DNA of 64,000 nucleotides, from NCBI GenBank assembly GCA_014584695.1, contig JACTMI010000032.1, positions 105,265 to 169,264 on the forward strand. Direction: 5' to 3'. Position numbers and translations under genes: made by a program. The notes under the pieces were generated by a model. The model did no database searches and was not told where the DNA came from. It worked only from the letters and a program-made list of their open reading frames with translations. This document shows, piece by piece, positions 36,720 through 62,795 of this stretch (positions within the stretch are counted from its first letter, which is position 1; the number at the start of each line of letters is the position of its first letter). Origin of the DNA: Acidobacteriota bacterium. GTDB taxonomy: Bacteria > Acidobacteriota > Thermoanaerobaculia > Multivoradales > JAGPDF01.

Positions 36720-38393
36720 ATGCCCTTCCTCGTCTTCCGCAACGGAGCCCGCAAAGGGGAGCGATTCTGGTTCGAGCGCGGCGTGCTGCTCGGCCGCGGT
36801 CCGCTGGCCGATCTCGAGCTCAAGGACCCGGCGGTGTCGCGCCGCCACGCGCTGGTCTCGTGGGCGGAGAAGCGCTGCTTCGTCTCCGACCTGCAGAGCG
36901 GCAACGGCACCTACGTCAACGGCCAGCGGGTGCGGGATCCGGTGCCGATCGACGAAGGCGACGAGATCCGGGTCGGCGCCAGCATCCTCGAGTTCCGGCA
37001 GAACGTCGAGCGGGTGCGCGACCTGTCGATGATCTCGCGCATCCTGCTCGAGGACTCGAAGCCCGATCTCGCCAAGGTCACGATCTCGCGCTCGGTCGTG
37101 ATCCCGATGTCGGGCAAGCGGACGACCACCGGCAGGACCTCGCTCGCCGCCGAGCTCAAGGCGCTCCAGCAGCGGCTGGAGTTCGTCAACGAGGTCGGCA
37201 AGGCGATGGCGCGCACGATCGACGAGACGGCGCTGCTCGCCGAGGTGCTGCGCCAGGTGCTCGACATCCTGCCGCAGGCGGACCGCGCCTTCGTGGTCCT
37301 CTACGAGGAGGACACCCAGACCTTCGTGCCGCGCGTGGCCCGCACCCGCTCCGGGACGGCGACCGAGATCCCGGCCAGCCGGACGCTGCTCGAGGAAGTG
37401 GTCCGCAAGCGCCATGCGCTGCTGTCGACCGACATCGGCAAGGAGGGCGCGTTCGAGGCGGCGATGTCGGTGCGGGCGCTCGATCTGCGCTCGGTCGCCT
37501 GCGTGCCGCTGATCGCCGAGGACCGGGTCTACGGCGTGCTCCAGGTCGACAATTCGGAGCGCAGCCGGAAGTTCTCCGAAGCGGACCTGAACATCCTGGT
37601 CGGCGTCGCCGGTCCGATCGCCCTGTCGCTCGCCAATGCCCGCCTCCACCGACAGCTGCTCGACCGCGAGCTGCTCGAGCACGATCTGGCGTTGGCGCGC
37701 CGGATCCAGCTGCGCTTCCTGCCCAAGGAGCTGCCGAAGCTGCCCGGATATCGTTTCGCGGTCGAATATTCGCCCGCGCTGGCGGTCGGCGGCGACCTCT
37801 ACGACCTCGTGCCGCTGCCCGACGGACGGCTCGCCATCGCGCTGGGGGACGTCTCCGGCAAGGGCGTGTCGGGCGCGCTCATGATGGCCCGGCTGACCAG
37901 CGAGTTGCGCGCGGCGGCGGTGCGGCGGGCCTCGGCCGCGGCGGTGCTCGAGGAGCTCAACGAGGTGGTCCACGCCGAGGGCGCCGAGGGGATGTTCGTG
38001 ACCCTCCTCTTCGGCATTCTCGACCCTTCGACCGGCCGGATCGAGCTCGCCAACGCCGGACACCTGCGGCCGGTCCTGCGCCACCCCGACGGCCGCTGCG
38101 GCGAGCTGTCGATCGCGACCGGCGCCGCGCTCGGCTTCAAGCGCCCGCTCGGGGCGGCCGCCTACGCCGTGCAGCTGGGCCCAGGCGACCTGCTGGCGAC
38201 CTTCTCGGATGGCTTGACCGAGGCCGCCAATGGCGCCGGCGAGCGCTTCGAGAGCGCGCGGGTCGTCGCGGCGATGCGGGGCGCGGCGGGCTGCGACGAG
38301 GCGCTCACCGGCATTCTTCAGTCGGTGCGCCAGTTCCTGGGCGACAGCGCGGTCGACGACGACCTGACCCTGCTCTGCGTCGGCCGCAGCTGA
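36720..38393 (+). CDS. FHA-GAF-PP2C (SpoIIE-type) serine phosphatase
   Basis: N-terminal FHA (VSRRHALVSW...GNGTYVNG), central GAF-like region, C-terminal PP2C/SpoIIE (AVGGDLYD...GDVSGKGVSGA). Confidence 0.8.
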   Translation: MPFLVFRNGARKGERFWFERGVLLGRGPLADLELKDPAVSRRHALVSWAEKRCFVSDLQSGNGTYVNGQRVRDPVPIDEGDEIRVGASILEFRQNVERVRDLSMISRILLEDSKPDLAKVTISRSVVIPMSGKRTTTGRTSLAAELKALQQRLEFVNEVGKAMARTIDETALLAEVLRQVLDILPQADRAFVVLYEEDTQTFVPRVARTRSGTATEIPASRTLLEEVVRKRHALLSTDIGKEGAFEAAMSVRALDLRSVACVPLIAEDRVYGVLQVDNSERSRKFSEADLNILVGVAGPIALSLANARLHRQLLDRELLEHDLALARRIQLRFLPKELPKLPGYRFAVEYSPALAVGGDLYDLVPLPDGRLAIALGDVSGKGVSGALMMARLTSELRAAAVRRASAAAVLEELNEVVHAEGAEGMFVTLLFGILDPSTGRIELANAGHLRPVLRHPDGRCGELSIATGAALGFKRPLGAAAYAVQLGPGDLLATFSDGLTEAANGAGERFESARVVAAMRGAAGCDEALTGILQSVRQFLGDSAVDDDLTLLCVGRS

Positions 38394-38409: not shown

Positions 38410-38922
38410 TCAGCGCTTCGGCCGGCCGGGATCGGGGCGGAACTTGATCAGCGCCGCCGCCAGGGCGGCACGCTCCGAGGAGCTGCCGCCGCCGATCGGC
38501 GCGCGGATCTCCTTGCGCACGCCGTCGCGGCGCGACAGCAGGTCGTCCGCCAGATGGGAGACCTTGGCCGCCTTGACGTTGGTGGCCAGCCACTCGAGCG
38601 CCGGTTCGCGCGCCGGCAGGATCGGGAACAACGCCGCGAACCCCGAGATGTCGAAGACCTCCTTGACGCTCGGGTTGAGGGCGCAGAGGGCGAGCCGGCC
38701 GCCGACGCTGGCCAGGCGCTTGCCGGTCATCAGCAGGACGCGCAGGCCGGCGCTGGTGACGAAGTCGAGCCGTCCACAGTCGACCAGGAGCTCGGTCTTG
38801 CCCCCGGCCAACGCGGCTTCGAGCGCCTTCTCGAGCTGGGGCGCGGAGCGGGTGTCGAGCTGGCCCTGGAGCGCGGCGACCAGCACTCTGCCGGCCTCCT
38901 TGACCTGGACTTCGAAGGGCAT
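38410..38922 (-). CDS. STAS-domain protein (anti-sigma-factor antagonist-like) with C-terminal extension
   Basis: MPFEVQVKEAGRVLVAALQGQLDTRSAPQLE...SAGLRVLL matches the SpoIIAA/RsbV fold. Confidence 0.65.
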   Translation of the reverse strand: MPFEVQVKEAGRVLVAALQGQLDTRSAPQLEKALEAALAGGKTELLVDCGRLDFVTSAGLRVLLMTGKRLASVGGRLALCALNPSVKEVFDISGFAALFPILPAREPALEWLATNVKAAKVSHLADDLLSRRDGVRKEIRAPIGGGSSSERAALAAALIKFRPDPGRPKR

Positions 38923-38930: not shown

Positions 38931-39749
38931 CTACTCGGCGTGGAAGACGAAGTCGACCAGCCCGAAACGGAGCCGCGCGCCGCTGGTGAGCGGGCGCTCG
39001 ACCCCGGTCGCCAGCCGATCGCCCTCGACGAAGGTGCCGTTGGCGGTGCCGACCTCCTCGCGCAGCAGGAAGGCGCCGTCGCGGTAGACGATTCGCGCGT
39101 GCCGGCGCGACAAGGAGCGCTGGGGGTCGAGCGCCGTCAGGTCGATCTCGGGCGCCTGCTGGGTGACCGGGTCGAGGCGGCCGATGACCGCGTCGCGGTC
39201 GAACGGCAGCGGCAGCTCCGCGCCGGAGGGGACGTGCACGAGGCGCGGCCGGGCGGCGGTCGCGGCCGCGGGGGCGGCCGCCGCGGGCGGCGCCACCGGC
39301 TGCAGCGTCGCCAGCTCGTGCCGGGGCGCTCCCCCCAGCACCTCCTGCGCCACCCGGTTGGCGGCCAGCGCCTCCTCCTCGTAGCGGCGCAGTCGCTGCC
39401 CGAGCCCGCGCAGCATGCGCACGGCGACTTCCGGGTACTCGCGCAGCATCTGATCGAAGGTCGAGGCGTCGACCGGCAGCAGCCGCGCATCCTTGAGGAC
39501 GCGCGCCGACGCCGAGCGCGGGCGGCTCTCGAGCATCGCCATCTCGCCGAAGAAGTCGCCGGCCTCGAGCGCCATCAGCCGCTTCTCCTCGGGACCGAAC
39601 TGCTTGACCAGCTCGACCTCGCCCTCCTGGATGATGTACATCTCCTCGCCGCGCTCGCCTTCGCGGAAGACGAAGCTGCCGGCCGGGATCGAGATCAGCA
39701 GCTTCGACTGGGTGTCGTCGCCGCCGGCGCCTGGGCGTTCGTTGACCAT
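38931..39749 (-). CDS. Cyclic-nucleotide-binding domain plus FHA domain protein
   Basis: N-terminal cNMP-binding (FGEMAML) and C-terminal FHA (SRRHARIVY...GTANGTFVEG). Confidence 0.75.
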   Translation of the reverse strand: MVNERPGAGGDDTQSKLLISIPAGSFVFREGERGEEMYIIQEGEVELVKQFGPEEKRLMALEAGDFFGEMAMLESRPRSASARVLKDARLLPVDASTFDQMLREYPEVAVRMLRGLGQRLRRYEEEALAANRVAQEVLGGAPRHELATLQPVAPPAAAAPAAATAARPRLVHVPSGAELPLPFDRDAVIGRLDPVTQQAPEIDLTALDPQRSLSRRHARIVYRDGAFLLREEVGTANGTFVEGDRLATGVERPLTSGARLRFGLVDFVFHAE

Positions 39750-42771: not shown

Positions 42772-43079
42772 ATGGAGATGTCGCGCGGTGAGATGCAGGA
42801 CCTGCTGAACAAGTTCGCGGCCCAGAACCCGAAGTACCGCGAGGCCCTGCTGTCGGACCCGAAGTCGGTGGTCCAGAAGCAGTTCGCCCTCAGCCTGGAG
42901 GGGGTCACGGTCAAGGCGGTCGAGGAGAGCCCGAACACCTTGTACGTCATCGTTCCGCGCGCGGCGGCGGCCGGTGAGCTCGACGACTCCGACCTCGAGA
43001 AGGTCGCGGGCGGCGGCGACATCAACGTCAAGCTGGGCGGCGAGGTCAGCTGCTCGCAGGGCAGATCAACCTCGGCTGA
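42772..43079 (+). CDS. RiPP precursor peptide A with NHLP-type leader and GG site; 3' end uncertain (-1 frameshift against a conserved TGA at 43077-43079)
   Basis: GAGGAG RBS. Leader ...LLSDPKSVVQKQFALSLEGVTVKAVEESPNTLYVIVPRAAAAGELDDSDLEKVAGGG, then DINVKLGGEVSCSQG. Frame 0 has no stop until 43596, running antisense through the aminopeptidase gene. The end is set at the conserved TGA. Confidence 0.55.
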
Positions 43080-44537: not shown

Positions 44538-44618
44538 GATAGGGAGAATCGTTCGGCGCACGACGCCGAGCCCGGGCGGGATGAACTCGCCGGGCACGAG
44601 ACCAGAGGAGCAACGCCA

Positions 44619-44928
44619 GTGGAGATGTCACGCGGTGAGATGCAGGACCTGCTGAACAAGTTCGCGTCCCAGAACCCGCAGTATCGCGATGCGCTGATCA
44701 AGGACCCGAAGTCGGTGGTGGAGAAGCAGTTCAACATCAGCCTCTCCGGCGTCACCGTCAAGGCCGTGACCGAGGCCCCCGACACGCTGTACGTGATCGT
44801 TCCGCGTGCTGCGGCGGCCGGTGAGCTCGACGACTCCGACCTCGAGAAGGTCGCGGGCGGCGGCGACATCAACGTCAAGCTGGGCGGCGAGGTCAGCTGC
44901 TCGCAGGGCCCAGATCAACCTCGGCTGA
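44619..44928 (+). CDS. RiPP precursor peptide B (paralog of A, GTG/ATG start); 3' end uncertain (+1 frameshift against the same conserved TGA at 44926-44928)
   Basis: Leader about 85% identical to A and an identical core start DINVKLGGEVSCSQG. Frame 0 would read 345 nt into lanM, which is implausible. Confidence 0.55.
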
Positions 44929-48000: not shown

Positions 48001-48121
48001 GTTCCGAGGCTACCCGGGCCTCGCCTGGAGCCTGATCTCGCTCACCGACGCGGGCGGACCGCTGCCGCTGGTGGCGGCGCTCGAGCTGCCGGCGGAGCGC
48101 CGCCGGAGGAGCCAGCAATGA
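45041..48121 (+). CDS. lanM: Class II lanthipeptide synthetase LanM (dehydratase plus LanC-like cyclase)
   Basis: Kinase-like dehydratase motifs (DLHAENLIA...VLVDAEM). C-terminal LanC zinc-ligand motifs GFAHGASG, SWCHGAPG and CCGTAG. An alternative GTG start at 44966 is possible. Confidence 0.85.
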   Translation: MSTIATACLRAETLFERLARLARAFDAPPALEDAAVAAALEPWRRAVARGDGEAFARRLAWDGIDPRVAALAFVEPVGAPDGPWCVNMERWLHAVATRGLASSGSELAAGLPFGEWVASWVAEAASRARQKLPALDDLLTPAAWLQWQRALGGRLAWIAALPLYERFDLERSARGEAGALARFLAALGASPTASGLELPGLVRQLAGRAEDWIDAGVEWIGRLAADRAGFALAFEGDADPGRVVAVEAGLSDPHARGRRVLALTFESGLEVIYKPRPVDLESAWWQLASELAEAGFEAAPLAARTLARPGYGWMERVAAGGVDSASEAESWFRRAGALVALAWVLGGRDLHAENLIADRRGPVLVDAEMLLAPEPGALLRSGPDSVLATGLVADPAATAGPGAWGYAGLDLPEPGELPEADRHWENLGTDRLRLAWRRFPRALKTNVLRWRGRPQRPEAWREAVLEGFDLGMAAIGEQRERIERWLAARGDTPTRVLFRPSAQYATTVALSVRPRYANDGLAGSLLREALLQPLVGLAERPALWPLIADERAALEALDLPVFHLPAGATALTNSAGERIEGLFEQSGIAAARARLAELDAERIERERRHLAAALEPRRLGRAEEESRLAAAAAEIAGALAMSKAFAAVPAPGASLRELALYGGAAGRALFAAGAWRATGGAAWASIAGEIASGLVRALAAVPAEAEGQPSRPGGTDGWGSILWTLVTLAELLEQPELLAGAAAAGERLEATPRRPDLWGFDLAAGEAGALLGWLALAQASGEAAALERARDSGQRLLSSQLRSGPDAGGWPAPGGSPPLAGFAHGASGIARALDALAAATGEGEYRDAAGAALRFESSLFDRQRGDWPARIAGGGRRFLCSWCHGAPGVAIARALRLAAGGEDRAAATELATALATLAGAPLPEVDHLCCGTAGRLAAQTVAGRWGGGEEALAAGRRLARRALARAEGSGGWRIPAEPPAERPDLGLFRGYPGLAWSLISLTDAGGPLPLVAALELPAERRRRSQQ

Positions 48122-51276: not shown

Positions 51277-53324
51277 GATCCCTTGCCGCCAACTTCCTGG
51301 CGGCGGGGGCGCTGCTCTTCGCGATCGAGCCGGCGCGAGCCCAGGTGCTCTCGGCGGCCGATGCGGTGAGCGAGACGCTCGCCCACGACCCCAGGGTCGC
51401 CCTCGCGCTGGCCCAGGTCGCGGAGCGCCGCGGCCAGTACCAGGAGTTCACCGGGACCTTCGACGGCGCCGTGTTCTTCAACAGCCAGGTCGACTACACG
51501 CGCCAGGGACTCGCCGGCGAGGTGCTCAAGGAGGAGACCAAGCGACGGGTGCAGCTCGAGCTCGTCGACCGCTTCTTCACCAACGCGGCGAACTCGATCA
51601 ACTCGATTCTCGATGGTGGCGATATCGACGAGACCAGCCTGCTGTTCATCGACACGGCGCAGCGCAATCTCAACGGCTGCTCGCCCACTCAGACCAAGGT
51701 GGAGATCGACCTCGGCCTGGACCTCGAGGGCAACGACCAGGGCACGGTCTTCCTCTGCCTGAACGCGGCCGAGAACTTCGGCGCGGTGCAGGCGATCGGC
51801 CTCGACCTGGCGAACCAGGGGACTCTGTCCACGGATTCGCTCCGCACGCTCTACTTCTTCAGCAAGCTGACCGGGCTCACCGGGCCGCTCGAGGACTTCC
51901 GGCGCGAGACCACGGCGCTGCTCAACGATCAGGGGCGGATCGCGCTGCGCATCGTCCGCCAGGTCGCCGACGGCGCGCGCTTCGCGCGCGCCCGGCTGGG
52001 CGACATGCCGGAGGAGCACGAGCTGATCGACTTCCAGAATCAGCTCGGCTACCGCCATCGCCTGCGCAACGGCATCGGCATCACGCCGACGCTCGAGCTG
52101 CGGGCCACCGAGGAGAACTTCGCCGGCAAGCTGCGCATCGTGCAGTTCGGCGATTCCACCAAGGCCAACCTGTTCACCGCCACGGCGCGCATCGCTTTCG
52201 ACATGCCGCTGGCGCGCAACCGCGGCGAGGCCGCGGTGCGGGCGTCGGAGCTGGCGGCGCAGGCGAACCTGCGGGCCGCCGAAGCGCTCGCGGTGCAGAC
52301 CGCTTCGGACCAGGCGCTCGAGACGCTCACCGCTTACTGGGAGCTGGCGGCGGCCGAGGAGCGGGTCGCCGTGCTCGAGCGTTCGCTGGCGCTCAAGACG
52401 GAGATCGACGGCGCGGTGCGCGACCTGATCGAAGGCCAGGAGCTGCCGGGGGTCGAGCGGCTCCGCAGCTCGGCGCGGGTCGCGGAGGCGCGCGGTCAGT
52501 TGGCGGCGGCGCGGCAGCAGGCCGCGACGGCACGGGTCGAGCTGGCGCGCGCGATGGGCGCCCGCGACGATCCGGGGGCGGAGGCCGGCTTGCGGACCGA
52601 GGGTCTCGCCGACTACGCGGCGCTGCCGCTGGTCGGCGGCGATGACGCGCGGCCGCTGGTGGCGGCCGCGATCGCGAGGCGCGCCGACATCGCCGCCAAC
52701 GACCGCTTCGTCGAAGCCAACCAGATTCTCGAGAAGGCGGCCCGGCTCAACCTGAAGCCGGACGTGACGCTGGCGCTGAACATCTCCTACTCCGGGTTCG
52801 AGGAGACGTTCGAAGAGCGCTACTACGACGTCGAGGGATTCTGGAAGGCCGCGTCGGGCAAGGTCGCGGGGCCGAGCTACGGCCTGGCGCTCCGGTTCAC
52901 CATACCGGTCGGCAACCACGAGGCCCGCGGGCGGCTGATGCAGGCGGAGTCGAAGACGGGGACGGCGCGCATCGATCGCGCCGACCTCGAACGGACCATC
53001 GCGCTCAAGGTCAACGAGGCGGCCGCGTCGCTCGACCGCTCGGCGCGCGAGCTCGAGGCGCGGCTCGCCCACCTGACGCACCAGCAGCGGACGGTGGACG
53101 ACAGCCTCGAGCGGCTGCGCGGCGGGGACCTCTCGGTGCTCGACGTGCTGACCAGCGAGGACCAGCTGACCGAAGCGAAGCTGGGCTGGATCGAGGCGGC
53201 GCGGGCCTACGCCGAGCTGCAGACCCGGTTGCGCTACGAGACCAACACGCTGCTCGCCGATTCGCCATTGGACGCGGATCCGCGGTCGCTGTCGCTGCGG
53301 CCGTTCACGGAGCCGGCGCTCTAG
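51273..53324 (+). CDS. TolC-family outer-membrane efflux protein 2
   Basis: Signal peptide and the same bipartite architecture. ATGA-coupled to TolC 1. Confidence 0.7.
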   Translation: MRSLAANFLAAGALLFAIEPARAQVLSAADAVSETLAHDPRVALALAQVAERRGQYQEFTGTFDGAVFFNSQVDYTRQGLAGEVLKEETKRRVQLELVDRFFTNAANSINSILDGGDIDETSLLFIDTAQRNLNGCSPTQTKVEIDLGLDLEGNDQGTVFLCLNAAENFGAVQAIGLDLANQGTLSTDSLRTLYFFSKLTGLTGPLEDFRRETTALLNDQGRIALRIVRQVADGARFARARLGDMPEEHELIDFQNQLGYRHRLRNGIGITPTLELRATEENFAGKLRIVQFGDSTKANLFTATARIAFDMPLARNRGEAAVRASELAAQANLRAAEALAVQTASDQALETLTAYWELAAAEERVAVLERSLALKTEIDGAVRDLIEGQELPGVERLRSSARVAEARGQLAAARQQAATARVELARAMGARDDPGAEAGLRTEGLADYAALPLVGGDDARPLVAAAIARRADIAANDRFVEANQILEKAARLNLKPDVTLALNISYSGFEETFEERYYDVEGFWKAASGKVAGPSYGLALRFTIPVGNHEARGRLMQAESKTGTARIDRADLERTIALKVNEAAASLDRSARELEARLAHLTHQQRTVDDSLERLRGGDLSVLDVLTSEDQLTEAKLGWIEAARAYAELQTRLRYETNTLLADSPLDADPRSLSLRPFTEPAL

Positions 53325-53354: not shown

Positions 53355-54512
53355 ATGTTCGGCGGAGGTCCCGAGAAGCTGCTGCGCAAGGCGGCGATCG
53401 AGAAGATGTCGTCGCCGGAGCAGCTCGACATGGCGATGCGGGTGACCTCGCCGATGGGCTGGGTGGCGCTGTCGGCGATCGGGGTGGCCCTGGTCGCCGG
53501 CATCGTCTGGAGCATCGTCGGCCGCATTCCCGAGCAGGTCGACGCGCAGGGGGAGCTGCTGCGCGGGGATCGTGTCGGCGCGGTGACGGCGATCGCCTCG
53601 GGCCGGCTCAAGGACGTGGTCGTCCGCATGGGAGACAACATCGAGGTCGGCGATCTCGTGGCCCGGCTCGCGCTGCCGGACATCGAGGCGCAGATCGAGA
53701 AGGTGAAGGCGGACATCCAGGACCTGGAGGCCCGGCAGCGGGTGCAAAGCGGCGAGACCAGCGCCGTGGTCGCCGGCTACCGGTCCAAGCTCTCCGGGCT
53801 CTACGCGCAGCGCCGCAACATGCAGCAGCTGGTGGAGAAGGGGCTGCGCACGCAGAAGGACCTGCTGCAGATCGACGCCCAGATCGCCGACACGCAGGCC
53901 CAGATCGCCCAGACCCAGGGCGGCAGCGACCAGCGCGACCTCCAGGTCGACGACAAGCGGCGGGAGCTGATCCGGCTCGAGTCCCAGCTGGCCGCGACCT
54001 CGGAGCTGCGCTCCTCGGTACCCGGCAGGGTGGTCCAGATCCAGGTCGCGGCGGGGCAGCCGGTGCAAGCAGGAGATTCGGTCGTGCTGATCGAGGACGA
54101 GAGCCTGCCGCTGCACGCGCTGATCCTGATCCCGGGCGTGCAGGGCAAGCGGGTCGTTCCCGGCATGGAGGTCAAGGTCTCGCCGACCGACGTCAAGTCG
54201 GAAGACCACGGCTTCATGCTCGGCAAGGTGACTTCGGTCTCGGACAACGCCGTGGCGCCGCAGGAGCTCGACCGGATTCTCAACAACCAGGCGAAGACCC
54301 AGAAGTACATGGAGCAGGCCCCTTTCATCGCCTTCGCGGACCTGATTCCGGATCCGGCCCCCGGCAACGTCTCCGGCTTCAAGTGGACCTCCGCTCTCGG
54401 CCCGCCGAAGCGAATCACCAGCGGCACGCCCTGCGTCTTCCAGGTGATCGTCGACGAGCGCCGGCCGATCTCCTACGTCGTCCCGATGGTCAAGAAGACG
54501 CTGGGAATCTGA
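53355..54512 (+). CDS. HlyD-family periplasmic adaptor (NHLP-bacteriocin secretion type)
   Basis: GGAGGAGG RBS, N-terminal transmembrane anchor, long coiled-coil, C-terminal beta-domain. Confidence 0.8.
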   Translation: MFGGGPEKLLRKAAIEKMSSPEQLDMAMRVTSPMGWVALSAIGVALVAGIVWSIVGRIPEQVDAQGELLRGDRVGAVTAIASGRLKDVVVRMGDNIEVGDLVARLALPDIEAQIEKVKADIQDLEARQRVQSGETSAVVAGYRSKLSGLYAQRRNMQQLVEKGLRTQKDLLQIDAQIADTQAQIAQTQGGSDQRDLQVDDKRRELIRLESQLAATSELRSSVPGRVVQIQVAAGQPVQAGDSVVLIEDESLPLHALILIPGVQGKRVVPGMEVKVSPTDVKSEDHGFMLGKVTSVSDNAVAPQELDRILNNQAKTQKYMEQAPFIAFADLIPDPAPGNVSGFKWTSALGPPKRITSGTPCVFQVIVDERRPISYVVPMVKKTLGI

Positions 54513-54525: not shown

Positions 54526-56736
54526 GTGAGCAACCCCGCCGCCCCGCCCGCCGCCGAGAGCGAGGCCCAGCCCAAGCCGAGCGGTCCGCCCAGCCGGCGG
54601 GTCAAGGTCCCGACCGTCATCCAGATGGAGGGCGTCGAGTGCGGCGCCGCTTCGCTGGCGATGATCCTCGCCTACTTCGGCCGCATCGCGCCGCTGGAGG
54701 AGCTGCGGGTCGAGTGCGGCGTTTCGCGCGACGGCTCCAAGGCTTCCAACCTCCTGAAGGCGGCGCGCAAGTACGGCCTGGAGTCGAAGGGCTTTAAGTA
54801 CGAGATCGAGCAGCTCTTCCCGCTCAAGTTCCCCTGCATCCTGTTCTGGAACGCCAACCACTTCCTGGTGCTCGAGGGCTTCCGGGGTGGCAAGGTCTAT
54901 CTGAACGACCCGGCGCAGGGGCCGCGCGTCATCACCATGGAGGAGTTCGACGCCGGCTTTTCGGGCGTCGTGCTGACTTTCGAGAAGGGGGCGGACTTCC
55001 AGCCCGGCGGCGACAAGCCGAGCATGTACCACGCGCTCCGGCGGCGCCTGGTCGGTTCCGAGGTGGCGCTGCTGTTCGTCCTGCTCTGCGGCCTGTTCCT
55101 GGTCGTGCCCGGACTGGTCATCCCGACGTTCTCGCGCATCTTCGTCGACGAGTATCTCGGCGCCGGCCGTGATTCGATCATCCGCCCGCTGCTGCTGGGC
55201 ATGGGGATCACCGCGCTCCTGAACATGGCGCTGACCGGGCTGCAGCAGCACTCCCTGCTGCGGCTGGAGACCCGTCTGGCGCTCAAGACCTCGGCGCAGT
55301 TCTTCACCCACGTGCTGCGCCTGCCGATCAACTACTTCGCGCAGCGCTTCGCCGGCGAGATCGGCTCGCGCGTGGCGATCAACGACAAGGTGGCGACGAT
55401 GGTCGGCGGCAAGCTCGCCACCACCGTCATCGACTGCATCCTGGTCGTCTTCTACGGCGCGTTGATGTTCCTGTACGACGGCATCCTGACCTCGGTCGTG
55501 ATCGCCCTGGCGTTGGCCAACATCGTGGCGATGAAGCTGGTCCAACGGGTCCGCACCGACGCTTCCCGGAGGCTGCAGGCGGACAAGGGCAAGCTGGTCG
55601 GCACCGCGATGTACGGCTTGAGGATGATCGAGACGCTCAAGGCGACCGGCTCCGAGCCCGAGTTCTTCGCCCGCTGGTCCGGCTACCAGGCCAAGTCGCT
55701 GCGCGCGCAGCAGGAGCTGCAACTCCTCTCCGAGATGATCAATGTGGTGCCGCAGCTGGTGACGACGCTGATCTCGGCGGTGGTCCTGCTGCTGGGCGGC
55801 CTGCGGGTGATGGACGGCGCGCTCACGGTCGGCATGCTGGTGGCCTACCAGACCCTGTCGGGGAACTTCACCAAGCCGCTCTCGAACCTGGTCAACTTCG
55901 GCGGTTCCTTGCAGGAGCTCGAAGCGGACATGAACCGCCTCGACGACGTGCTTCGCTACCCGCAGGACAAGACCTACGAGCGGGAGGACGTCGGCCGCGA
56001 GGACCGCCGGCTCAAGCTGCAGGGCAAGGTCGAGCTGCGCAACGTGACCTTCGGCTACAGCCCGCTCGAGAAGCCGCTGATCGAGGACTTCAACCTGGTC
56101 ATCCAGCCCGGCCAGCGGGTGGCGCTGGTCGGCGCCTCGGGCAGCGGCAAGTCGACGGTGGCCAAGGTCGTCTCCGGCCTCTACGAACCCTGGCGTGGCG
56201 AGGTGCTGTTCGACGACGTGGCCAGGACTCAGCTGCCGCGCCGCCTGCTCACCAACTCCCTGGGCATGGTCGACCAGGACATCTTCATGTTCGACGGCAC
56301 CATCCAGGAGAACGTGACGATGTGGGACGGCACCATCCCGCTCACCGCGGTGTCGACGGCGGCGCGCGACGCCGCCATCGACGAGGTGATCGAGACCCGC
56401 GAGGGGGCGTATGGCGCCAACGTGACCGAAGGCGGCTCGAACTTCAGCGGCGGGCAGCGCCAGCGGCTCGAGATCGCCCGCGCGCTGGTCGGCGGGCCGA
56501 CGGTGCTGATCCTCGACGAGGCGACGAGCGCGCTCGATCCGGCGACCGAGGTGGTGATCGACGACTCGACGCGGCGACGCGGCTGCACCACGATCATCAT
56601 CGCGCACCGCCTGTCGACGATCCGCGACTCCGACGAGATCATCGTCCTCGAGCGCGGCAAGATCGTCCAGCGCGGCACCCACGAAGAGATGAAGGACCAG
56701 GATGGCCCCTATGCCCGGCTCATCGGCGCCCACTAG
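54526..56736 (+). CDS. ABC exporter with N-terminal C39 bacteriocin-processing peptidase domain
   Basis: C39 catalytic Cys in VPTVIQMEGVECGAASLAMILAYFG, 6-TM domain, Walker A GASGSGKST, signature FSGGQRQRL. Confidence 0.85.
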   Translation: MSNPAAPPAAESEAQPKPSGPPSRRVKVPTVIQMEGVECGAASLAMILAYFGRIAPLEELRVECGVSRDGSKASNLLKAARKYGLESKGFKYEIEQLFPLKFPCILFWNANHFLVLEGFRGGKVYLNDPAQGPRVITMEEFDAGFSGVVLTFEKGADFQPGGDKPSMYHALRRRLVGSEVALLFVLLCGLFLVVPGLVIPTFSRIFVDEYLGAGRDSIIRPLLLGMGITALLNMALTGLQQHSLLRLETRLALKTSAQFFTHVLRLPINYFAQRFAGEIGSRVAINDKVATMVGGKLATTVIDCILVVFYGALMFLYDGILTSVVIALALANIVAMKLVQRVRTDASRRLQADKGKLVGTAMYGLRMIETLKATGSEPEFFARWSGYQAKSLRAQQELQLLSEMINVVPQLVTTLISAVVLLLGGLRVMDGALTVGMLVAYQTLSGNFTKPLSNLVNFGGSLQELEADMNRLDDVLRYPQDKTYEREDVGREDRRLKLQGKVELRNVTFGYSPLEKPLIEDFNLVIQPGQRVALVGASGSGKSTVAKVVSGLYEPWRGEVLFDDVARTQLPRRLLTNSLGMVDQDIFMFDGTIQENVTMWDGTIPLTAVSTAARDAAIDEVIETREGAYGANVTEGGSNFSGGQRQRLEIARALVGGPTVLILDEATSALDPATEVVIDDSTRRRGCTTIIIAHRLSTIRDSDEIIVLERGKIVQRGTHEEMKDQDGPYARLIGAH

Positions 56737-59700
56737 CGCGCGCGGCGCGCTCAAGCTGCGCGTCGTCGCGTCGTCGCTCGCCGAGCTGATCGGTCGCGAG
56801 ATCGCCGTCGACCGCGCACCGATGGTGCTGGGCCGGGCCGACGACTGCGACGTGGTGATCGCGGTGCCGAGCGTCTCCCGGCGGCACGCGCAGATCGAGC
56901 GCGTGGGCGAGGATTTCGTCGTCCGCGATGCCGGCAGCGCCAACGGCCTGGTGGTGGCCGGGCAGCGGGTGATGGAGGCGCGCCTGGAGCCGGGCGTCTC
57001 CTTCGCGCTCGGGGACACACACTTCGAGGTCTTCGCCGAGATGCCGCCGGTGCCGCAAGTGCCGGACGTGCCGGCGGCGGCGCTGCCTTTCGCCGTCGAC
57101 CGCACCGCGGCGATCGCTAATCTGTCGGAGATCATCGCCCAGATCGAGCGGCCGCAGCCGCTCGAGGAGCTGGGCGAGCGCATCGTCACCGCCGCCAACA
57201 AGCCGTTCGTGCTCGACGACCCGGAGGTCGCCTGGATCGTCGAGTCGGGCAAGCTCGAGATCTTCACCGTCTCGATCGAGAAGGGCCAGCCGGTCGGTGC
57301 CCGCGACCATTTCCTGACCGTCGAGCCCGGCCAGGCGCTGTTCGGTTTCGACACCGAGCGCTACGGCATGGGGTCGGGCTTCCTGGTGGTCGGCAAGGCC
57401 GGCTCGGTGCTCCGGCGCTTCGATCTGGCACGACTGCTCGACCTGGCCTCGGTGCCCGCGCACGGGCAGCGGATCGGCAAGCTCCTCGACACCTGGATCG
57501 AGGGGCTGTCGCGACGGCTGACGCACGATCTCCCGCGGGTGCCGACGGCCGACCTGATTCTGGAGCGGGGCGCGTCGATGCCCTGGCAGGCCGGACAGAA
57601 GGCCTCGCCGGGGCACGTGGTGCTGTGGGTCGAGCTGCCGGCGGAGCGGTTGCTGTTCGACGGCATGGCGAGCCTCGGTCGCGACCTCGAGGGAGTGCTC
57701 TTTCCGCTCGGACCGACCTGTTGGCTGGAGCTGTTGTCGAGCGAGCACGAGCTCGCGGTGACGCCGCGCGGCGCCGGTGAGTCGGCCGCGGATCCGCGGT
57801 TGTGGGCGGGTCTCGACGTCTTCCACCGCGTGCTCTGCGAGTGCGAGTTCGTCAACAAGAAGCTCGCCTTCGTCGACGAGTTCCAGCGCCTGCAGCGCAA
57901 GGCCGAGCAGGTCGAGCAGGCGCAGGAGAGCGCCTACGCGGCGATCGGCTCGGTGCTCGGCGGTACCGGAGTCTGGATGCGGCCGAGCTCGCTCGGCGTC
58001 GACTCCGGCCCCATCCTCAAGGCCTGCGCGGTGGTCGGCGATGCGCTCGGCATCCAGGTCCGCCCCCATCCCGACGCGCGCGACGAACAGAGCTTCGAGG
58101 ACGCCCTCGGCGGCATCGCCGCCGCGTCACGGTTCAGGACGCGGCGGGTGACGCTGCTCGACGACTGGTGGAATCACGACCAGGGCCCCTTCCTCGGCCA
58201 GCGGGCGGAGACGAAGACTCCGGTGGCGATCGTCCCGACCAGTCCCCGCTCCTACATGCTGGTCGATCCGATCTCGGGCGAACGGGTGCCGATCGACGAG
58301 GAGGTCGCGCGCGGCCTCGAGCCGTTCGCGTGGACGTTCTACCGCTCGTTCCCGCCGGGCGCCCTCAAGGCGCTGGACCTGGTCAAGTTCGGCGCCCGCG
58401 GCCTCAAGGCGGAGTTCCGGACCATCGCGATCATGGGCGCGGCCGTGGGCATGCTGGGCACGCTGACGCCGATGATCTCGGGCAAGGTCTTCGACATCGC
58501 GATCCCGCAGGCGGAGCGGGGGCTGCTCTGGCAGTTCACTCTCGGCCTGGCGCTTTCGGCCTTCTGCTCGGCGGCGTTCAAGATCACGCAGAACATCTCG
58601 TTGATGCGCGTCCAGGGCAAGATGGACTACTCGATCCAGTCGGCGGTCTGGGACCGGCTGATCGACCTGCCGATGGATTTCTTCCGCAAGTACAACTCGG
58701 GCGACCTCGCCGACCGCGCCGCCGGCGTCGACCAGATCCGGTCGATCGTCTCCGGCGCGGGCGTGGCCGCGGTCCTGGGATCGCTGTCGTCGCTGTTCAA
58801 CGCCGCCCAGATGGTGACCTACAGCTTCCAGCTGGCGCTGACGGCGATGGCGCTGACGCTCGTCTACGTCGGGGTCTCCTGGCTGGTCAACTACCTGCAG
58901 TTACGCCACCAGCGCAAGGAGTTCGCGCTGCGCGGCAAGATCAGCGGGCTCGTCCTGCAGCTGATCGGCGGCGTGGCGAAGCTGCGCGTGGCCGGCGCCG
59001 AGGGACACGCCTTCAAGATGTGGGCGACGCGCTTCGCCGAGCAGCGGCGGATCAGCTTCAAGATCGGCGGCATCCAGAACGTCCATCAGATCTTCACCTC
59101 CGGCTACCCGGTGTTGTCGAACATGGCGATCTTCTTCGTCATGTTCACCCTGCGCCAGGGCGCGCTGGAGCGCGGCGAGCAGTTCGACATGACCACCGGC
59201 GACTTCCTGGCCTTCTCGGCGGCGTTCGGCATCTTCACCTCGGCGATGCAAGGGCTGGGCGACGCCTCGCTGTCGATGCTGCGGATCGTGCCGGTGTTCG
59301 AGCGCTTGAAGCCGATTTTGACCACCGAGCCCGAGGTGGACCCCTCGAAGTCCTACCCCGGCCAGCTCAAGGGCGAGATCGAGCTGTCGCACATCTGGTT
59401 CCGCTACTCGGAGGACTCGCCCTGGATCGTCCGCGACCTGTCGCTCAAGATCAAGCCCGGCCAGATGGTGGCCTTCGTCGGCGGTTCGGGCTGCGGCAAG
59501 TCGACGCTGCTCAAGATCATGCTGGGCTTCGAGAAGCCGCAGAAGGGCTCGGCCTACTTCGATGGGCAGGACCTCGCGACGCTCGACTTGCGCATGGTCC
59601 GGCAGCAGCTGGGCGTCGTGCTGCAGGATTCCCGGCTGCTGCCGGCGGACATCTTCCGCAACATCGCCGGCGCCACCTCGCGGACCGTCGACGATGCCTG

Positions 59701-60088
59701 GGCGGCGGCGCAGAAGGCCTCGATCGCGGAGGACATCAAGGCGATGCCGATGGGCATGCACACCGTCGTGTCCGAAGGCGGCGGAGCGTTCTCGGGTGGC
59801 CAGAAGCAGCGTCTGATGATCGCCCGCGCGCTGGTCAACAACCCGAAGATCATCTTCCTCGACGAAGCCACCAGCGCGCTCGACAACCGGGCGCAGGCGA
59901 TCGTGACCGAGAGCATGAATCGGCTGCAGGCGACGCGCATCGTCATCGCTCACCGGCTGTCGACGATCGAGGACGCGGACGTCATCTGCTACCTCGATGC
60001 CGGGCAGATCGTCGAGCAGGGCACCTACGCCGAGTTGATGGCCCTGGACGGCAAGTTCGCGGCCCTGGCGAAACGGCAGCTGGCATGA
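56702..60088 (+). CDS. ABC exporter with N-terminal FHA and cNMP-binding-like domains instead of a peptidase
   Basis: FHA (VLGRADDCDVVIAVPSVSRRHAQIERVGEDFVVRDAGSANGLVV). Beta-barrel-like FVLDDPEVAWIVESGKLEIF...VEPGQALFG. TMD, Walker A GGSGCGKST, signature FSGGQKQRL. Confidence 0.8.
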   Translation: MAPMPGSSAPTSARGALKLRVVASSLAELIGREIAVDRAPMVLGRADDCDVVIAVPSVSRRHAQIERVGEDFVVRDAGSANGLVVAGQRVMEARLEPGVSFALGDTHFEVFAEMPPVPQVPDVPAAALPFAVDRTAAIANLSEIIAQIERPQPLEELGERIVTAANKPFVLDDPEVAWIVESGKLEIFTVSIEKGQPVGARDHFLTVEPGQALFGFDTERYGMGSGFLVVGKAGSVLRRFDLARLLDLASVPAHGQRIGKLLDTWIEGLSRRLTHDLPRVPTADLILERGASMPWQAGQKASPGHVVLWVELPAERLLFDGMASLGRDLEGVLFPLGPTCWLELLSSEHELAVTPRGAGESAADPRLWAGLDVFHRVLCECEFVNKKLAFVDEFQRLQRKAEQVEQAQESAYAAIGSVLGGTGVWMRPSSLGVDSGPILKACAVVGDALGIQVRPHPDARDEQSFEDALGGIAAASRFRTRRVTLLDDWWNHDQGPFLGQRAETKTPVAIVPTSPRSYMLVDPISGERVPIDEEVARGLEPFAWTFYRSFPPGALKALDLVKFGARGLKAEFRTIAIMGAAVGMLGTLTPMISGKVFDIAIPQAERGLLWQFTLGLALSAFCSAAFKITQNISLMRVQGKMDYSIQSAVWDRLIDLPMDFFRKYNSGDLADRAAGVDQIRSIVSGAGVAAVLGSLSSLFNAAQMVTYSFQLALTAMALTLVYVGVSWLVNYLQLRHQRKEFALRGKISGLVLQLIGGVAKLRVAGAEGHAFKMWATRFAEQRRISFKIGGIQNVHQIFTSGYPVLSNMAIFFVMFTLRQGALERGEQFDMTTGDFLAFSAAFGIFTSAMQGLGDASLSMLRIVPVFERLKPILTTEPEVDPSKSYPGQLKGEIELSHIWFRYSEDSPWIVRDLSLKIKPGQMVAFVGGSGCGKSTLLKIMLGFEKPQKGSAYFDGQDLATLDLRMVRQQLGVVLQDSRLLPADIFRNIAGATSRTVDDAWAAAQKASIAEDIKAMPMGMHTVVSEGGGAFSGGQKQRLMIARALVNNPKIIFLDEATSALDNRAQAIVTESMNRLQATRIVIAHRLSTIEDADVICYLDAGQIVEQGTYAELMALDGKFAALAKRQLA

Positions 60089-61272
60089 GTGGGGAGCCTT
60101 CCTCTTCGGTCGATGGGCTCGCCGCCCGGCGCGAGCTTCTGCGCGGCCTGGGCGCCAGCGAGGAGCTGCTCGCCGAGCTGCTCGCCTACACCGAGAACCC
60201 CTACCGCCACCTGGAGCTGCCGGCCGGCACGCCGCCGCTGCCGGCCGAACCCCAGGTCGCGGCCTGGCGGCACGCGGCGGCGGAGGCGGCCGAGTTCGGG
60301 GCGGCGGCGGCGCTGGCGCGGCGCTTCCCGCAGCTCGGCTTCCCGATTCGGGAGGGAATGTCGGAGGATGCGGCCTATCGGGCCGCCACGCGGCGCGGCG
60401 AGTTCGAGCGCCAGCCGGCGCGGCTCCGGCTCGAGCTCGAGCGGCCCGAGCGGCTGGAGCTGTCGATTGCCGAGCTGCCCGCGGGGCCGGTGCCGATCCT
60501 GGTGGCGCCGGCGCGGGCCGATTTCGAGGCGCTGGTGCGCGCTCTGACCTCGCGCAACGAGCCGGTCGAGGTGCCGGCCGCGATGGGCGCCTGCCTGATC
60601 AAGGGCTTGGCGGACTGGGAACGGGTGGCCGAGCACCGGCGCCGGTTCGAGGAGCGGCTCGGCCGCCCCGCCGACGAGCTCGAATGGCAGGCCGAGATGG
60701 CCTCGCTCGCCCAGATCAAGGAGGCGTGGCAGGACCGTCTGATCCTGCTGTCGACCGGCCCTTACAGCGCGGTTCCGGCCGAGGAGGTCGGTCTCGAGCC
60801 GGCCGACTGGAGCGACGCGTCGGTGCGGATCCGCATGGCGCACGAGGGTTTCCACTACCTCACGCTGCGGCTCTGCGGGCGCATCCGGAGCAATCTCCTG
60901 GACGAGCTGATCGCCGATTTCGCCGGCATGTTGGCCGCGTTCGGCGACTACCGGCCGGCGCTCGCACGCCGGTTCCTCGGCGTCGATCGCCTGCCGGCGC
61001 TGCGCGGCGGGGGCCGGATCGAGGTCTATCGCGGGGATCCTGCGCTCTCGGACGCGGCCCTCGCGGTGGTGGCCCGTCTGGCCGCGGCGGCGACCGAGAA
61101 CCTGGCGGCGATCGAGGTCAGCCCGGCCGAGCGCAAGTCGCCGGCGGCGTTGGCCACGCTGCTGTTGGCCCTCGCCAAGCTCGATCTCGAGTGCTTCGCG
61201 AGCCGGGAGTTCCCGCGCCAGTTCGAAGCGGCGCGGGCGGCGGGAACTGGTGGCCAGGAGGCGCGACGATGA
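60085..61272 (+). CDS. Conserved hypothetical protein (395 aa), ATGA-coupled on both sides
   Basis: The ORF is embedded in the operon with start and stop overlaps. No family motif recognised apart from HEGFHY. Confidence 0.5.
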   Translation: MSGEPSSSVDGLAARRELLRGLGASEELLAELLAYTENPYRHLELPAGTPPLPAEPQVAAWRHAAAEAAEFGAAAALARRFPQLGFPIREGMSEDAAYRAATRRGEFERQPARLRLELERPERLELSIAELPAGPVPILVAPARADFEALVRALTSRNEPVEVPAAMGACLIKGLADWERVAEHRRRFEERLGRPADELEWQAEMASLAQIKEAWQDRLILLSTGPYSAVPAEEVGLEPADWSDASVRIRMAHEGFHYLTLRLCGRIRSNLLDELIADFAGMLAAFGDYRPALARRFLGVDRLPALRGGGRIEVYRGDPALSDAALAVVARLAAAATENLAAIEVSPAERKSPAALATLLLALAKLDLECFASREFPRQFEAARAAGTGGQEARR

Positions 61273-61697
61273 CCGAGCTGTTTCGGGGATCCCTCGATCG
61301 TCCCACCCTCGCCGGGCTCGGCCGTTTGCTGGACCGGCTGGCGGAGGCGATGGCGCGGGCCGGTGTCACCACCCGCAGCGCGCAGTCGATCTCGATCGCG
61401 GCCGACGAGCTGGCGAGCAACGTGCTGAATCACCGCGAAGGGCGTGACAAGCCTCACCTCGACCTGGTGCTGCGGCGCCGGGAGGACGGCGCGATCGAGC
61501 TCGAGCTGATCGACGACGGGCCGGAGTTCGATCCGTTCGCGGTCGCCGCGCCGGACGTCACTCTCGGCCTCGAGGAGCGCCCGATCGGCGGGCTCGGCAT
61601 CCACCTCGCCCGCCGCCTCGCTTCCGGCGCGAGCTACCGGCGCGGCGACGACCGCAACCGCGTCGAGCTCCGCTTCGACCCGCCGGCCGCCGGCTGA
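61269..61697 (+). CDS. RsbW/SpoIIAB-like anti-sigma serine kinase (HATPase_c)
   Basis: N-box ADELASNVLNH, G1 DDGPEFD, G2 GGLGIHL, 142 aa. Confidence 0.65.
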   Translation: MTELFRGSLDRPTLAGLGRLLDRLAEAMARAGVTTRSAQSISIAADELASNVLNHREGRDKPHLDLVLRRREDGAIELELIDDGPEFDPFAVAAPDVTLGLEERPIGGLGIHLARRLASGASYRRGDDRNRVELRFDPPAAG

Positions 61698-62795
61698 TCA
61701 GCCGGCGCGAAAGACGAAGCGAACGGTGCCGATCTGGACCCGGTCGCCGTCGCCGAGCTGCCGCTCCTTCACCTTCTCGCCGTTGACGTAGGTGCCGTTC
61801 TCCGAGTTCAGGTCGCGCAGCACGTAGCCACTTTCGGACTGCGCGATCTGGGCGTGGCGACGAGACACCGCCGGCTTGTTGAGCCGGATCTGGTTCTCGG
61901 GCGTGCGTCCGATGAAGGTGAGCGGCTCGAGCGCGAACTCGGTCGCTCCCAGGTCGGTGTCGATCGCGATCAGCTTGCCCTTGACCAGGACGACGGTCTT
62001 GCCGGCGGCCGGGGACGCGCTCGGCGCGGCGGGCGGGGGGACGTCGATCAGGGCCGTCGCTCCGGCCGCGGCGGCCGGCGGCGGCGGTGGCGCCTCGGCC
62101 GCCAGGATCACCGTGCCGTCCGGCTCGCCGGTGGCGTTGGCCGGGGTGGCCGCCGGTGCGGGCGGCGCGACGGCGACCTCGGCGGTGATGCCCAGCGGCT
62201 GGATGACCGGCTGCGGCGCGGTGATGCCGGCATCGACCAGAGGCGGTGGCGGCGGGGTGGCGACCGCGGGCGCGGTGACCGAAGGGGCCGCGACCTCCGG
62301 GACGATCGGAACCGGTGCCGGCGGTAGAGCCGGCGCGGGCGTGGCGAGCTCGGCCTCGGAGTCGAACGCACCGAGGAACTGCTCACGCACCGCCTGCGTC
62401 TCCTCGAGCTGCCGGGTCTGCTCGTCGAGCTTGTCGTCGAGCTCGGAGGCCCGCTTCTTGAACTCACCGTCCTCGAACTCACCGAGGCGATGGCGGAAGT
62501 CGATCTCCTCGCGGTCGAGCTTGGTCGCCTGGTGCTGCGCCTCGATCTTGTCGAGCAGGACCTTGAGCTTGGCGTACTCCTGCCGCGCCTTGTCCTTGAG
62601 CGGGGAGGCCTTGCGCTCTAGGGCGGAGACCCTCGACTCGTAGTCGCGCTTGACCCGGCGGAAGACGACGTCGGTGACCTTGCTCTGGTCTTCGGCCATC
62701 TTGGCCAGCCGGGTCGCGATCGTCTCCCGTTCTCCCTTGATCTCCATCAGCTCGTCGATGACCGAGGTATCGACCTGCTGTAGCTGCTCGAGCAT
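61698..62795 (-). CDS. FHA-domain protein with N-terminal coiled-coil and Pro/Ala-rich linker
   Basis: C-terminal FHA (SRRHAQIAQSESGYVLRDLNSENGTYVNG). Confidence 0.7.
   Translation of the reverse strand: MLEQLQQVDTSVIDELMEIKGERETIATRLAKMAEDQSKVTDVVFRRVKRDYESRVSALERKASPLKDKARQEYAKLKVLLDKIEAQHQATKLDREEIDFRHRLGEFEDGEFKKRASELDDKLDEQTRQLEETQAVREQFLGAFDSEAELATPAPALPPAPVPIVPEVAAPSVTAPAVATPPPPPLVDAGITAPQPVIQPLGITAEVAVAPPAPAATPANATGEPDGTVILAAEAPPPPPAAAAGATALIDVPPPAAPSASPAAGKTVVLVKGKLIAIDTDLGATEFALEPLTFIGRTPENQIRLNKPAVSRRHAQIAQSESGYVLRDLNSENGTYVNGEKVKERQLGDGDRVQIGTVRFVFRAG

Follow-up and report, generated by a model that had tools for sequence, protein, structure and literature searches.

The stretch of DNA analysed here (the window) comprises 64,000 nucleotides of contig JACTMI010000032.1 of an Acidobacteriota bacterium (assembly GCA_014584695.1, positions 105,265 to 169,264), with a G+C content of ~71%. 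The gene in question, ABC2, is an uninterrupted open reading frame (ORF) of 1128 codons, scoring 893.4 bits against the NCBIfam model TIGR03797 (cutoff 709.4) with residues 437-1127 on model positions 3-686. A preliminary description of the window had taken this ORF for a second ABC exporter, which is borne out. An exact-sequence look-up revealed no identical protein on record. By its family match, ABC2 is the peptidase-less second ABC subunit of an export operon for NHLP-leader class II lanthipeptides. Pfam detects an FHA domain (42-104), ABC_membrane (577-849) and ABC_tran (911-1058), and the complete order of modules is FHA, tandem cyclic-nucleotide-binding (CNB)-like barrels, C39-like domain, transmembrane domain and nucleotide-binding domain (NBD):

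56702..60088, + strand: ABC2 half-transporter, NHLP bacteriocin export permease/ATPase subunit (1128-aa ORF, ATG start, TIGR03797).
56792..57031, + strand: FHA domain, residues 31-110, Pfam core 42-104 (PF00498, 55.2 bits, E 9.6e-15; PF16697, 50 bits).
57032..57115, + strand: Pro-rich linker ending in [DE]-R-T135-x-x-I, a candidate phospho-acceptor and FHA ligand with Ile at pT+3.
57101..57526, + strand: predicted CNB-fold barrel A with flanking helices, residues 134-275, with the degenerate phosphate-binding cassette FGFDTERYGMGSGFLVVG (AlphaFold2 (AF2), Foldseek, hhalign).
57527..57958, + strand: predicted CNB-fold barrel B with a long C-terminal helix, residues 276-419 (AF2 model, Foldseek).
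58007..58342, + strand: predicted catalytically inactive C39-like domain, residues 436-547 (AF2 and Foldseek).
58430..59248, + strand: transmembrane domain ABC_membrane, residues 577-849 (PF00664, 70.7 bits).
59369..60085, + strand: NBD (PF00005, 120.6 bits) with consensus Walker A GGSGCGKS, signature FSGGQ, Walker B IIFLDE and H-loop.

The N-terminal FHA domain, already proposed as canonical in the preliminary description, is confirmed by the PF00498 match, with 55.2 bits against a gathering threshold of 20.7. The residues contacting phospho-threonine (pThr), G44-R45, S59-x-x-H62 and N81-G82, are present and are invariant across the aligned FHA-bearing relatives. Judged by these positions, the domain is canonical, with all pThr contacts kept. 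Thr135, directly after the Pro-rich linker, is a candidate phosphorylation site to which the FHA domain may bind. The motif [DE]-R-T135-x-x-I is invariant in 14/14 readable Thermoanaerobaculia loci, and T-x-x-[IVMF] is found at this position in 15 of the 18 FHA-bearing relatives. A relative with two FHA domains (P0067) carries repeated DDDAT-x-A-[IV] motifs along its long linker, and these look like putative FHA ligands.

For the region behind the linker, PF00027 (cNMP_binding) gives no match on full-length ABC2 at E<=1 and none on 12 family members (0/12) at E<=10, and the family profile finds no CNB protein among the PDB sequences. A confident AF2 model of residues 125-440, for which 12 sequences were aligned, has two beta-barrels separated by helices, with a helix in front of the first barrel and a long one after the second (predicted local distance difference test, pLDDT, 84.2; predicted template modelling score, pTM, 0.78). 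With this model, Foldseek returns 192 PDB matches at E<=1e-3, and the top 50 are all of the CNB fold (PKA-R, PKG, CRP; probability 0.97-1.0, best E 1e-6). The tandem CNB-A/B domains of PKA-R and PKG align over ~250-330 columns across both barrels, and members of the CRP family match single barrels. The template modelling (TM) scores are low (0.2-0.4), probably because of a different inter-domain geometry, and the fold call rests on the predicted model together with local 3Di matches. At the level of sequence profiles, hhalign aligns barrel A weakly, in register, with canonical CNB domains, including that of a cNMP_binding + FHA protein encoded in the window (P 5e-4, probability 32%). In this alignment, the canonical cassette FGEMAMLESRPRSA corresponds to FGFDTERYGMGSGF in barrel A: Glu is replaced by Phe, and Arg by Gly/Ser. 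Nor does the family consensus conserve these contacts to ribose (Glu) and phosphate (Arg). Barrel B gives no sequence-level signal in profile-profile comparison with CNB domains. The predicted fold supports two CNB-fold barrels in residues 134-419 that lack the cyclic-nucleotide contact residues, and binding of cyclic nucleotides by them is very unlikely. Of the single degenerate cNMP-like barrel proposed earlier, the fold is retained, but there are two barrels rather than one, and PF00027 does not detect them.

The earlier proposal had also placed the barrel where a C39 peptidase would be. This does not hold, as a C39-fold domain follows the barrels. The AF2 model of residues 428-572 (pLDDT 84.5) has the C39-like domain of HlyB as its top Foldseek match (3zua, E 6e-4, TM 0.59-0.61), followed by HlyB/D (7sgr), ComA, PCAT1 and LahT. 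PF03412 does not match ABC2, and hhalign places the region in register with the C39 domains of the partner transporter, ABC1, although not significantly (P 0.006). A Lys or Thr occupies the position of the catalytic His in the ABC1 alignment, and no Cys is found at the N-terminus of the first helix. ABC2 is therefore predicted to keep a C39-fold domain without catalytic residues behind the CNB barrels. Since this domain is retained at 436-547, the CNB-like module stands in front of the C39 domain and does not replace it.

The CNB-like module is widespread. Using the profile of the module, HMMER was run in full over 1.84 billion representatives (an earlier word-indexed profile search had given 14 matches) and found it in 2231 cluster representatives at E<=1e-3 and in 504 at E<=1e-30, mostly proteins of 960-1000 aa with the module at their start. 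Of ten representatives that are extended at the N-terminus, nine have one or two FHA domains. Among the top 150 representatives, a sample biased toward relatives of the query, a local FHA profile found 14 FHA-bearing proteins, with 1-3 copies (three in one case). In a neighbour-joining tree of the module, the FHA-bearing proteins form one clade with one outlier. A pattern scan covering one genome per species identified the FHA form, over query residues ~2-18 to 430-440, in 16 species genomes, a lower bound because the search patterns are specific. All are metagenome-assembled genomes (MAGs) of Acidobacteriota/Thermoanaerobaculia, the best identity being 67%. These matches speak against a myxobacterial origin of the DNA, which its high G+C content and numerous FHA domains had brought to mind. 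The barrels and the C39-like domain are the ordinary N-terminus of a long NHLP ABC2 subfamily, and the FHA domain is the addition of a sub-clade, a lineage-specific fusion within a known family. This assigns a tandem CNB-fold module and a dead C39-like domain to the ~300-aa N-terminus of the subfamily, previously uncharacterised, and links it structurally to HetC and to the C39-like domain of HlyB. In public annotation, the FHA-bearing relatives are named "NHLM bacteriocin system ABC transporter ATP-binding protein" or "FHA domain-containing protein", and no paper was found on an FHA domain fused to an exporter of the NHLP/PCAT type. Some of the relatives P0067, P0047, P0123 and P0041 have two or three FHA domains and long Pro/Ala-rich linkers. 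The 246-aa N-terminal extension of P0041 has no Pfam match.

ABC2 is the last transporter gene of a lanthipeptide export operon, for which the following features were identified:

42772..43079, + strand: NHLP-leader precursor copy 1 (GG cleavage site ending at 43014; conserved stop out of frame).
43182-44597, - strand: M29 aminopeptidase, between the two precursor genes.
44619..44928, + strand: NHLP-leader precursor copy 2, just upstream of LanM (conserved stop out of frame).
44966-48121, + strand: LanM class II lanthipeptide synthetase (DUF4135 + LANC_like; TIGR03897, 468 bits).
48118-49092, + strand: GNAT acetyltransferase (Acetyltransf_1).
49213-51276 and 51273-53324, + strand: two TolC-like outer-membrane efflux proteins (OEP1 and OEP2; PF02321, 78.7 and 90.4 bits).
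53355..54512, + strand: NHLP-system HlyD-type membrane fusion protein (TIGR03794, 248.6 bits, cutoff 156).
54526..56736, + strand: ABC1, the C39 peptidase / permease / ATPase partner (TIGR03796, 1090 bits, cutoff 853; PF03412, 120.9 bits).

The genes for HlyD, ABC1 and ABC2 are adjacent on the same strand. This confirms the NHLP two-ABC arrangement with a peptidase-less partner recognized in the preliminary description, as the TIGR03796 and TIGR03794 proteins precede ABC2. The order on the + strand is LanM, GNAT, the two TolC-like proteins, HlyD, ABC1, ABC2, DUF7005 and an RsbW-like kinase. Start and stop codons overlap for LanM/GNAT, OEP1/OEP2, ABC1/ABC2 (35 nt), ABC2/DUF7005 (ATGA) and DUF7005/RsbW-like (ATGA). 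Together, these genes encode a Gram-negative-type export machine whose substrate is a class II lanthipeptide with an NHLP leader.

The operon is surrounded by genes of a signalling type, partly directly behind ABC2 and partly upstream of the precursors:

60085..61272, + strand: DUF7005 protein, 395 aa (PF22541, 361 bits), its start overlapping the ABC2 stop (ATGA).
61269..61697, + strand: RsbW-like Ser/Thr kinase / anti-sigma-type protein, 142 aa (PF13581, HATPase_c_2, 64.5 bits), with a 4-nt overlap with the DUF7005 stop.
61698..62795, - strand: convergent coiled-coil / Pro-Ala linker / FHA protein, 364-365 aa (PF00498, 72.9 bits; OdhI-like FHA).
36720..38393, + strand: FHA-GAF-SpoIIE (PP2C) phosphatase (PF07228, 164 bits; PF00498, 69.7 bits; GAF).
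38410..38922, - strand: STAS anti-sigma-antagonist-type protein, 170 aa (tblastn; TIGR00377, 79.8 bits), phospho-site motif DFVTSAGL.
38931..39749, - strand: cNMP_binding + FHA protein with the intact phosphate-binding cassette FGEMAMLESRPRSA (PF00027, 75.1 bits; PF00498, 41.3 bits).
39755-41005, + strand: sigma-54 enhancer-binding protein, with only ~75 residues before the AAA+ domain.

Four FHA domains are thus encoded within 26 kb: in ABC2, in the PP2C phosphatase and in two adaptor-like proteins. The window also encodes a partner-switching set: a kinase of the HATPase_c_2 type, a PP2C phosphatase and a STAS protein whose phospho-acceptor Ser is conserved. The upstream PP2C phosphatase that had been announced is found at 36720-38393, though at a distance of 18 kb. 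The gene of the cNMP_binding + FHA protein is co-operonic with the STAS gene. With its intact cassette, this protein may be a genuine cyclic-nucleotide sensor feeding the module, while the barrels of the transporter are degenerate. The sigma-54 enhancer-binding protein has no receiver, FHA or GAF input domain. As called, its start is separated by only 5 bp from the divergent start of the cNMP_binding + FHA gene, and for one of these genes the wrong start codon may have been chosen. The Pfam scan of window ORFs revealed no sigma factor among those it covered.

DUF7005 carries the invariant residues H253-E-x-x-H257, followed by L-L-D-E274, the signature of a zincin-like metallopeptidase. The protein might act as a protease, or as a sensor linked to the RsbW-like kinase. 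Comparison of its profile with the PDB revealed no relative, and a search of the literature on DUF7005 returned nothing relevant. By gene coupling or fusion, DUF7005 and ABC2 are candidate outputs of the RsbW-like kinase. Two other ORFs behind ABC2 were considered as genes and rejected: one of 152 aa (60089-60547), where the real gene is DUF7005 (60085-61272), and one of 337 aa (60684-61697), where it is the 142-aa HATPase_c_2 protein (61269-61697).

The block formed by GNAT, the two outer-membrane efflux proteins, HlyD, ABC1, FHA-ABC2, DUF7005, the RsbW-like kinase and the convergent FHA gene is kept in 11-12 Thermoanaerobaculia loci. Among the loci with enough flanking sequence, DUF7005 follows ABC2 in 12, and the convergent FHA gene is present in 11. 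The trio of FHA-GAF-PP2C, STAS and cNMP_binding + FHA, located 18 kb upstream of ABC2 in the window (36720-39749), lies beside the exporter in L004. In this locus, an FHA-less ABC2 (42% identical) is followed by a DUF7005::HATPase_c_2 fusion and then by FHA-GAF-SpoIIE, STAS and cNMP_binding + FHA. In L025/26, a two-FHA ABC2 is followed by cNMP_binding + FHA and STAS, and no LanM is visible nearby in L025. In L027/28, a two-FHA ABC2 is followed by DUF7005, HATPase_c_2, FHA-GAF-SpoIIE, STAS, the orthologous coiled-coil FHA protein and a Pkinase of 699 aa; in L027 the ortholog is co-operonic with this Hanks kinase. Orthologs of the phosphatase therefore adjoin the exporter in L004 and L027, and those of the cNMP_binding + FHA protein in L004 and L025. 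None of these signalling genes occurs in L006 and L007, which are more distant and have an FHA-less ABC2. From the neighbourhoods of L004, L025 and L027, it follows that the association of this exporter clade with the phospho-signalling set recurs across lineages, one of which offers a plausible writer of pThr. The proposed link to Ser/Thr phospho-signalling is strengthened by this recurrence, by the 4-nt overlaps from ABC2 through DUF7005 to the RsbW-like gene and by the synteny of the block. On the strength of its neighbours, the exporter may be controlled by phosphorylation, although this falls short of proof.

The FHA domain of the convergent coiled-coil protein is 96% (L001/L009) and 91% (L023) identical in relatives in which ABC2, DUF7005 and the kinase show 60-77% identity. 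This reader domain is therefore under unusually strong constraint.

ABC2 shares with the NHLP/NHLM ABC2 proteins (TIGR03797) the gene order HlyD, ABC1 (C39) and ABC2, as well as NHLP-leader precursors nearby. The model covers residues 437-1127 only; the ~300-aa tandem CNB-like module falls outside it, yet is common, and the N-terminal FHA domain is limited to a sub-clade. The closest architectural parallel of the N-terminus is with HetC of Nostoc PCC 7120, in which a cNMP-binding domain, C39, transmembrane domain and NBD follow each other. The CNB region of HetC (codons 2-278) is required in vivo and is unresponsive to cAMP; in vitro, it binds ppGpp/GTP (PMC10986499). Both proteins thus have a CNB-type module N-terminal to a C39 fold, followed by the transmembrane domain and the NBD. 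The cNMP domain of HetC is, however, detectable with PF00027, and its C39 domain is active (C347/H420), whereas the barrels of ABC2 escape PF00027 and its C39-like domain lacks the catalytic residues. HetC also lacks an FHA domain, and neither a second ABC subunit paired with it nor a gene for a membrane fusion protein lies nearby.

In its regulation logic, ABC2 resembles Rv1747 of Mycobacterium tuberculosis (FHA-FHA-ABC), another ABC exporter with FHA at the cytoplasmic N-terminus. PknF phosphorylates Thr residues in the linker of Rv1747, the FHA domains of the protein bind them, and the transporter, which needs this for its function, is activated (PMC3138270). Multiple FHA domains with Thr-containing linkers, as in Rv1747, occur in the relatives of the window protein with two or three FHA domains, and a kinase is found in one lineage (L027). 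The order of Rv1747-like proteins is FHA, NBD and ABC2_membrane (PF01061; P0019, P0020), whereas ABC2 is a half-transporter of the type I-secretion/PCAT-like kind, with ABC_membrane (PF00664) followed by the NBD. The substrate is also different, and no kinase gene of this type is adjacent in the window. ABC2 resembles Rv1747 in regulation logic and HetC in N-terminal architecture and is a member of neither group. Literature searches on FHA domains with lanthipeptide/PCAT exporters and on NHLP with cyclic nucleotides returned nothing relevant beyond HetC and Rv1747.

The C39-like domain of HlyB binds substrate and is needed for secretion. Like residues 428-572 of ABC2, it is a C39 fold without the catalytic Cys (3zua); however, no sequence similarity between the two is detectable, and ABC2 is paired with a partner that has an active C39 domain. 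The RsbU/RsbV/RsbW modules share with the window a SpoIIE/PP2C phosphatase, a kinase of the HATPase_c_2 type and a STAS protein bearing a conserved phospho-acceptor Ser, which are co-localised in other lineages. Unlike in these modules, there is no evident sigma target, coupling or fusion joins the kinase to DUF7005 and to the exporter operon, the phosphatase has additional FHA and GAF domains, and further FHA proteins of the adaptor kind occur.

Exporters of the PCAT/NHLP type for bacteriocins and for peptides that are made ribosomally and modified after translation (RiPPs) are usually treated as constitutive machines, with control at the transcriptional level. The recurrent FHA fusion and the conserved kinase, phosphatase, STAS and FHA genes point instead to a post-translational, phosphorylation-dependent control of peptide export in Acidobacteriota. 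This is plausible on the comparative evidence, with Rv1747 as the analogue, and we consider it slightly on the probable side of even. The FHA domain would dock the exporter onto a phospho-threonine mark. The mark could be situated on its own linker, at [DE]-R-T135-x-x-I, and be read in cis or from one subunit to another; alternatively, a partner could carry it, for example a complex with the coiled-coil FHA protein. It would be written by a Hanks-type Ser/Thr kinase encoded elsewhere in the genome and erased by the FHA-GAF-PP2C phosphatase. The partner-switching set of RsbW-like kinase, STAS and PP2C, together with DUF7005, would feed into the same decision. The phosphorylation state would then switch ABC1-ABC2 assembly or ATPase activity, as PknF does for Rv1747. 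The hypothesis is testable, as point mutations of the FHA domain, Thr135 in the linker, and candidates for the roles of writer and eraser have been specified.

A more elaborate form of this proposal is tentative, and we rate it as somewhat improbable. In this form, a dedicated phospho-checkpoint would gate type I secretion of RiPPs after translation, with a Hanks kinase as the writer, the FHA-GAF-PP2C phosphatase as the eraser, FHA readers on the exporter and the adaptors, and an RsbW/STAS switch with the HExxH protein DUF7005. The FHA domain of ABC2 would bind the phosphorylated Thr of [DE]RTxxI in the linker and so switch assembly or ATPase activity of the exporter, and the barrels would sense a ligand other than a cyclic nucleotide, for example (p)ppGpp, or the NHLP leader. 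If true, it would be a new regulatory principle for exporters of the PCAT/NHLP family.

Several points weigh against phosphorylation-controlled export. No Hanks kinase was detected in the 64-kb window by motif, by tblastn with the L027 kinase or by a Pfam scan of the ORFs that were left. The one kinase nearby is of the RsbW type, and its expected substrate site in the STAS protein is a Ser (DFVTSAGL; LASAGL in L004). Since FHA domains read pThr and not pSer, this kinase is unlikely to write the FHA ligand, and a Hanks-type kinase is the more likely writer. The preliminary description had found the gating to fit the RsbW-like kinase two genes downstream, which does lie there (61269-61697, 64.5 bits, with DUF7005 in between) but hardly in that role. 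The AF2 model places Thr135 in the opening turn of its first helix, and the motif may be a plain structural helix cap; the FHA-less relatives start right at this region. L004, the nearest of the FHA-less relatives, keeps the signalling neighbours, so the module does not need an FHA domain on the transporter. FHA proteins may also be generally abundant in such genomes, in which case part of the enrichment in the neighbourhood could be background. Finally, the ABC1-ABC2 heterodimer is assumed.

The most serious alternative is that the partner-switching genes regulate transcription of the cluster and that the FHA domain only ties the exporter to the general Hanks-kinase network or localises it, without any gating. 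The finding would then have a lesser significance. RsbW/RsbV/RsbU-type modules classically control sigma factors, a sigma-54 enhancer-binding gene lies between the trio and the precursors (39755-41005), and the STAS phospho-site is a Ser; the persistence of the module beside the FHA-less ABC2 of L004 agrees with this as well. However, translational coupling ties the RsbW-like gene and DUF7005 to ABC2 and not to a sigma factor, no gene for which is present among the Pfam-scanned window ORFs, and four FHA readers are distributed over the exporter, the phosphatase and two adaptor-like proteins. Moreover, partner-switching modules can control secretion directly, as the Btr system of Bordetella does with its type III secretion system (T3SS). 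Control of transcription is judged unlikely as the sole role.

Alternatively, the FHA domain could be a phospho-independent scaffold for interaction or oligomerisation, like the FHA-fold cytoplasmic domains of YscD/PrgH in the T3SS. The match of the domain to PF16697 (Yop-YscD_cpl, 50 bits) and the lack of a local pThr writer kinase in the window would fit such a function. T3SS FHA-like domains are typically without the residues that contact pThr, whereas the canonical Arg45, Ser59, His62 and Asn81 are all kept here and are invariant in relatives. In addition, a PP2C that has an FHA domain is conserved in the neighbourhood, and one lineage has a Hanks kinase. A pure scaffold is a little less probable again.

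It could also be imagined that the FHA domain reads phospho-Thr intermediates made by LanM on the precursor, as a checkpoint retaining or selecting incompletely processed peptide. LanM enzymes phosphorylate Ser/Thr before elimination, and LanM and the precursors share the cluster with FHA-ABC2. Both precursors carry a ...DLEKVAGG|G cleavage motif, and copy 1 with a reconstructed C-terminus scores 52.4 bits against TIGR03793 (cutoff 50.9). The two copies are DNA-identical from the C-terminus of the leader through "...CTCGGCTGAGCCG", bar a 2-nt indel (CAGGG--CAG vs. CAGGGCCCAG). The conserved TGA is out of frame in both, and the ORFs continue into the M29 gene (copy 1) and LanM (copy 2). Metagenomic relatives (L029, L030; 80-84% identity) read ...GGKVECSQGALQTMIQINLG followed by a stop at the C-terminus of the precursor; compared with them, the window copies have deletions of 19 nt and 17 nt at one spot (43060-43079, 44907-44928). 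With one C fewer or one more, both window precursors would encode GDINVKLGGEVSCSQGQINLG followed by a stop. The loss of frame could be a homopolymer sequencing error, a decay of the precursors or something else. The shared core that can be reconstructed (GDINVKLGGEVSCSQG...QINLG) contains Ser and no Thr, which makes reading of the precursor by the FHA domain very improbable. FHA-ABC2 also occurs without a visible LanM nearby (L025), and the conservation of kinase, phosphatase and STAS genes around the exporter speaks for protein signalling.

An artefact of assembly or gene calling, by which a separate FHA gene was merged with ABC2, might be suspected from the frameshift-rich related MAGs (P0001, P0002, P0009) and the apparently frameshifted window precursors, but it is excluded for practical purposes because the fusion recurs in 16 species genomes, matched from query residues 2-18 to 430-440, and in independent metagenomes with 1-3 FHA copies, and because the ORF is unbroken over 1128 codons.

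In the closest public MAG relatives (P0001, P0002, P0009; L003), ABC2 is split or garbled by frameshifts. For example, the ABC2 of L001 is divided into genes at 10001-11683 and 11661-13490. Such frameshifts are typical of error-prone long-read assemblies; hence, gene lengths and domain calls from those MAG records need care.

The M29 aminopeptidase encoded between the two precursor genes and the LanM-coupled GNAT, which is kept in all related clusters, suggest N-terminal trimming and acetylation of the mature lanthipeptide.

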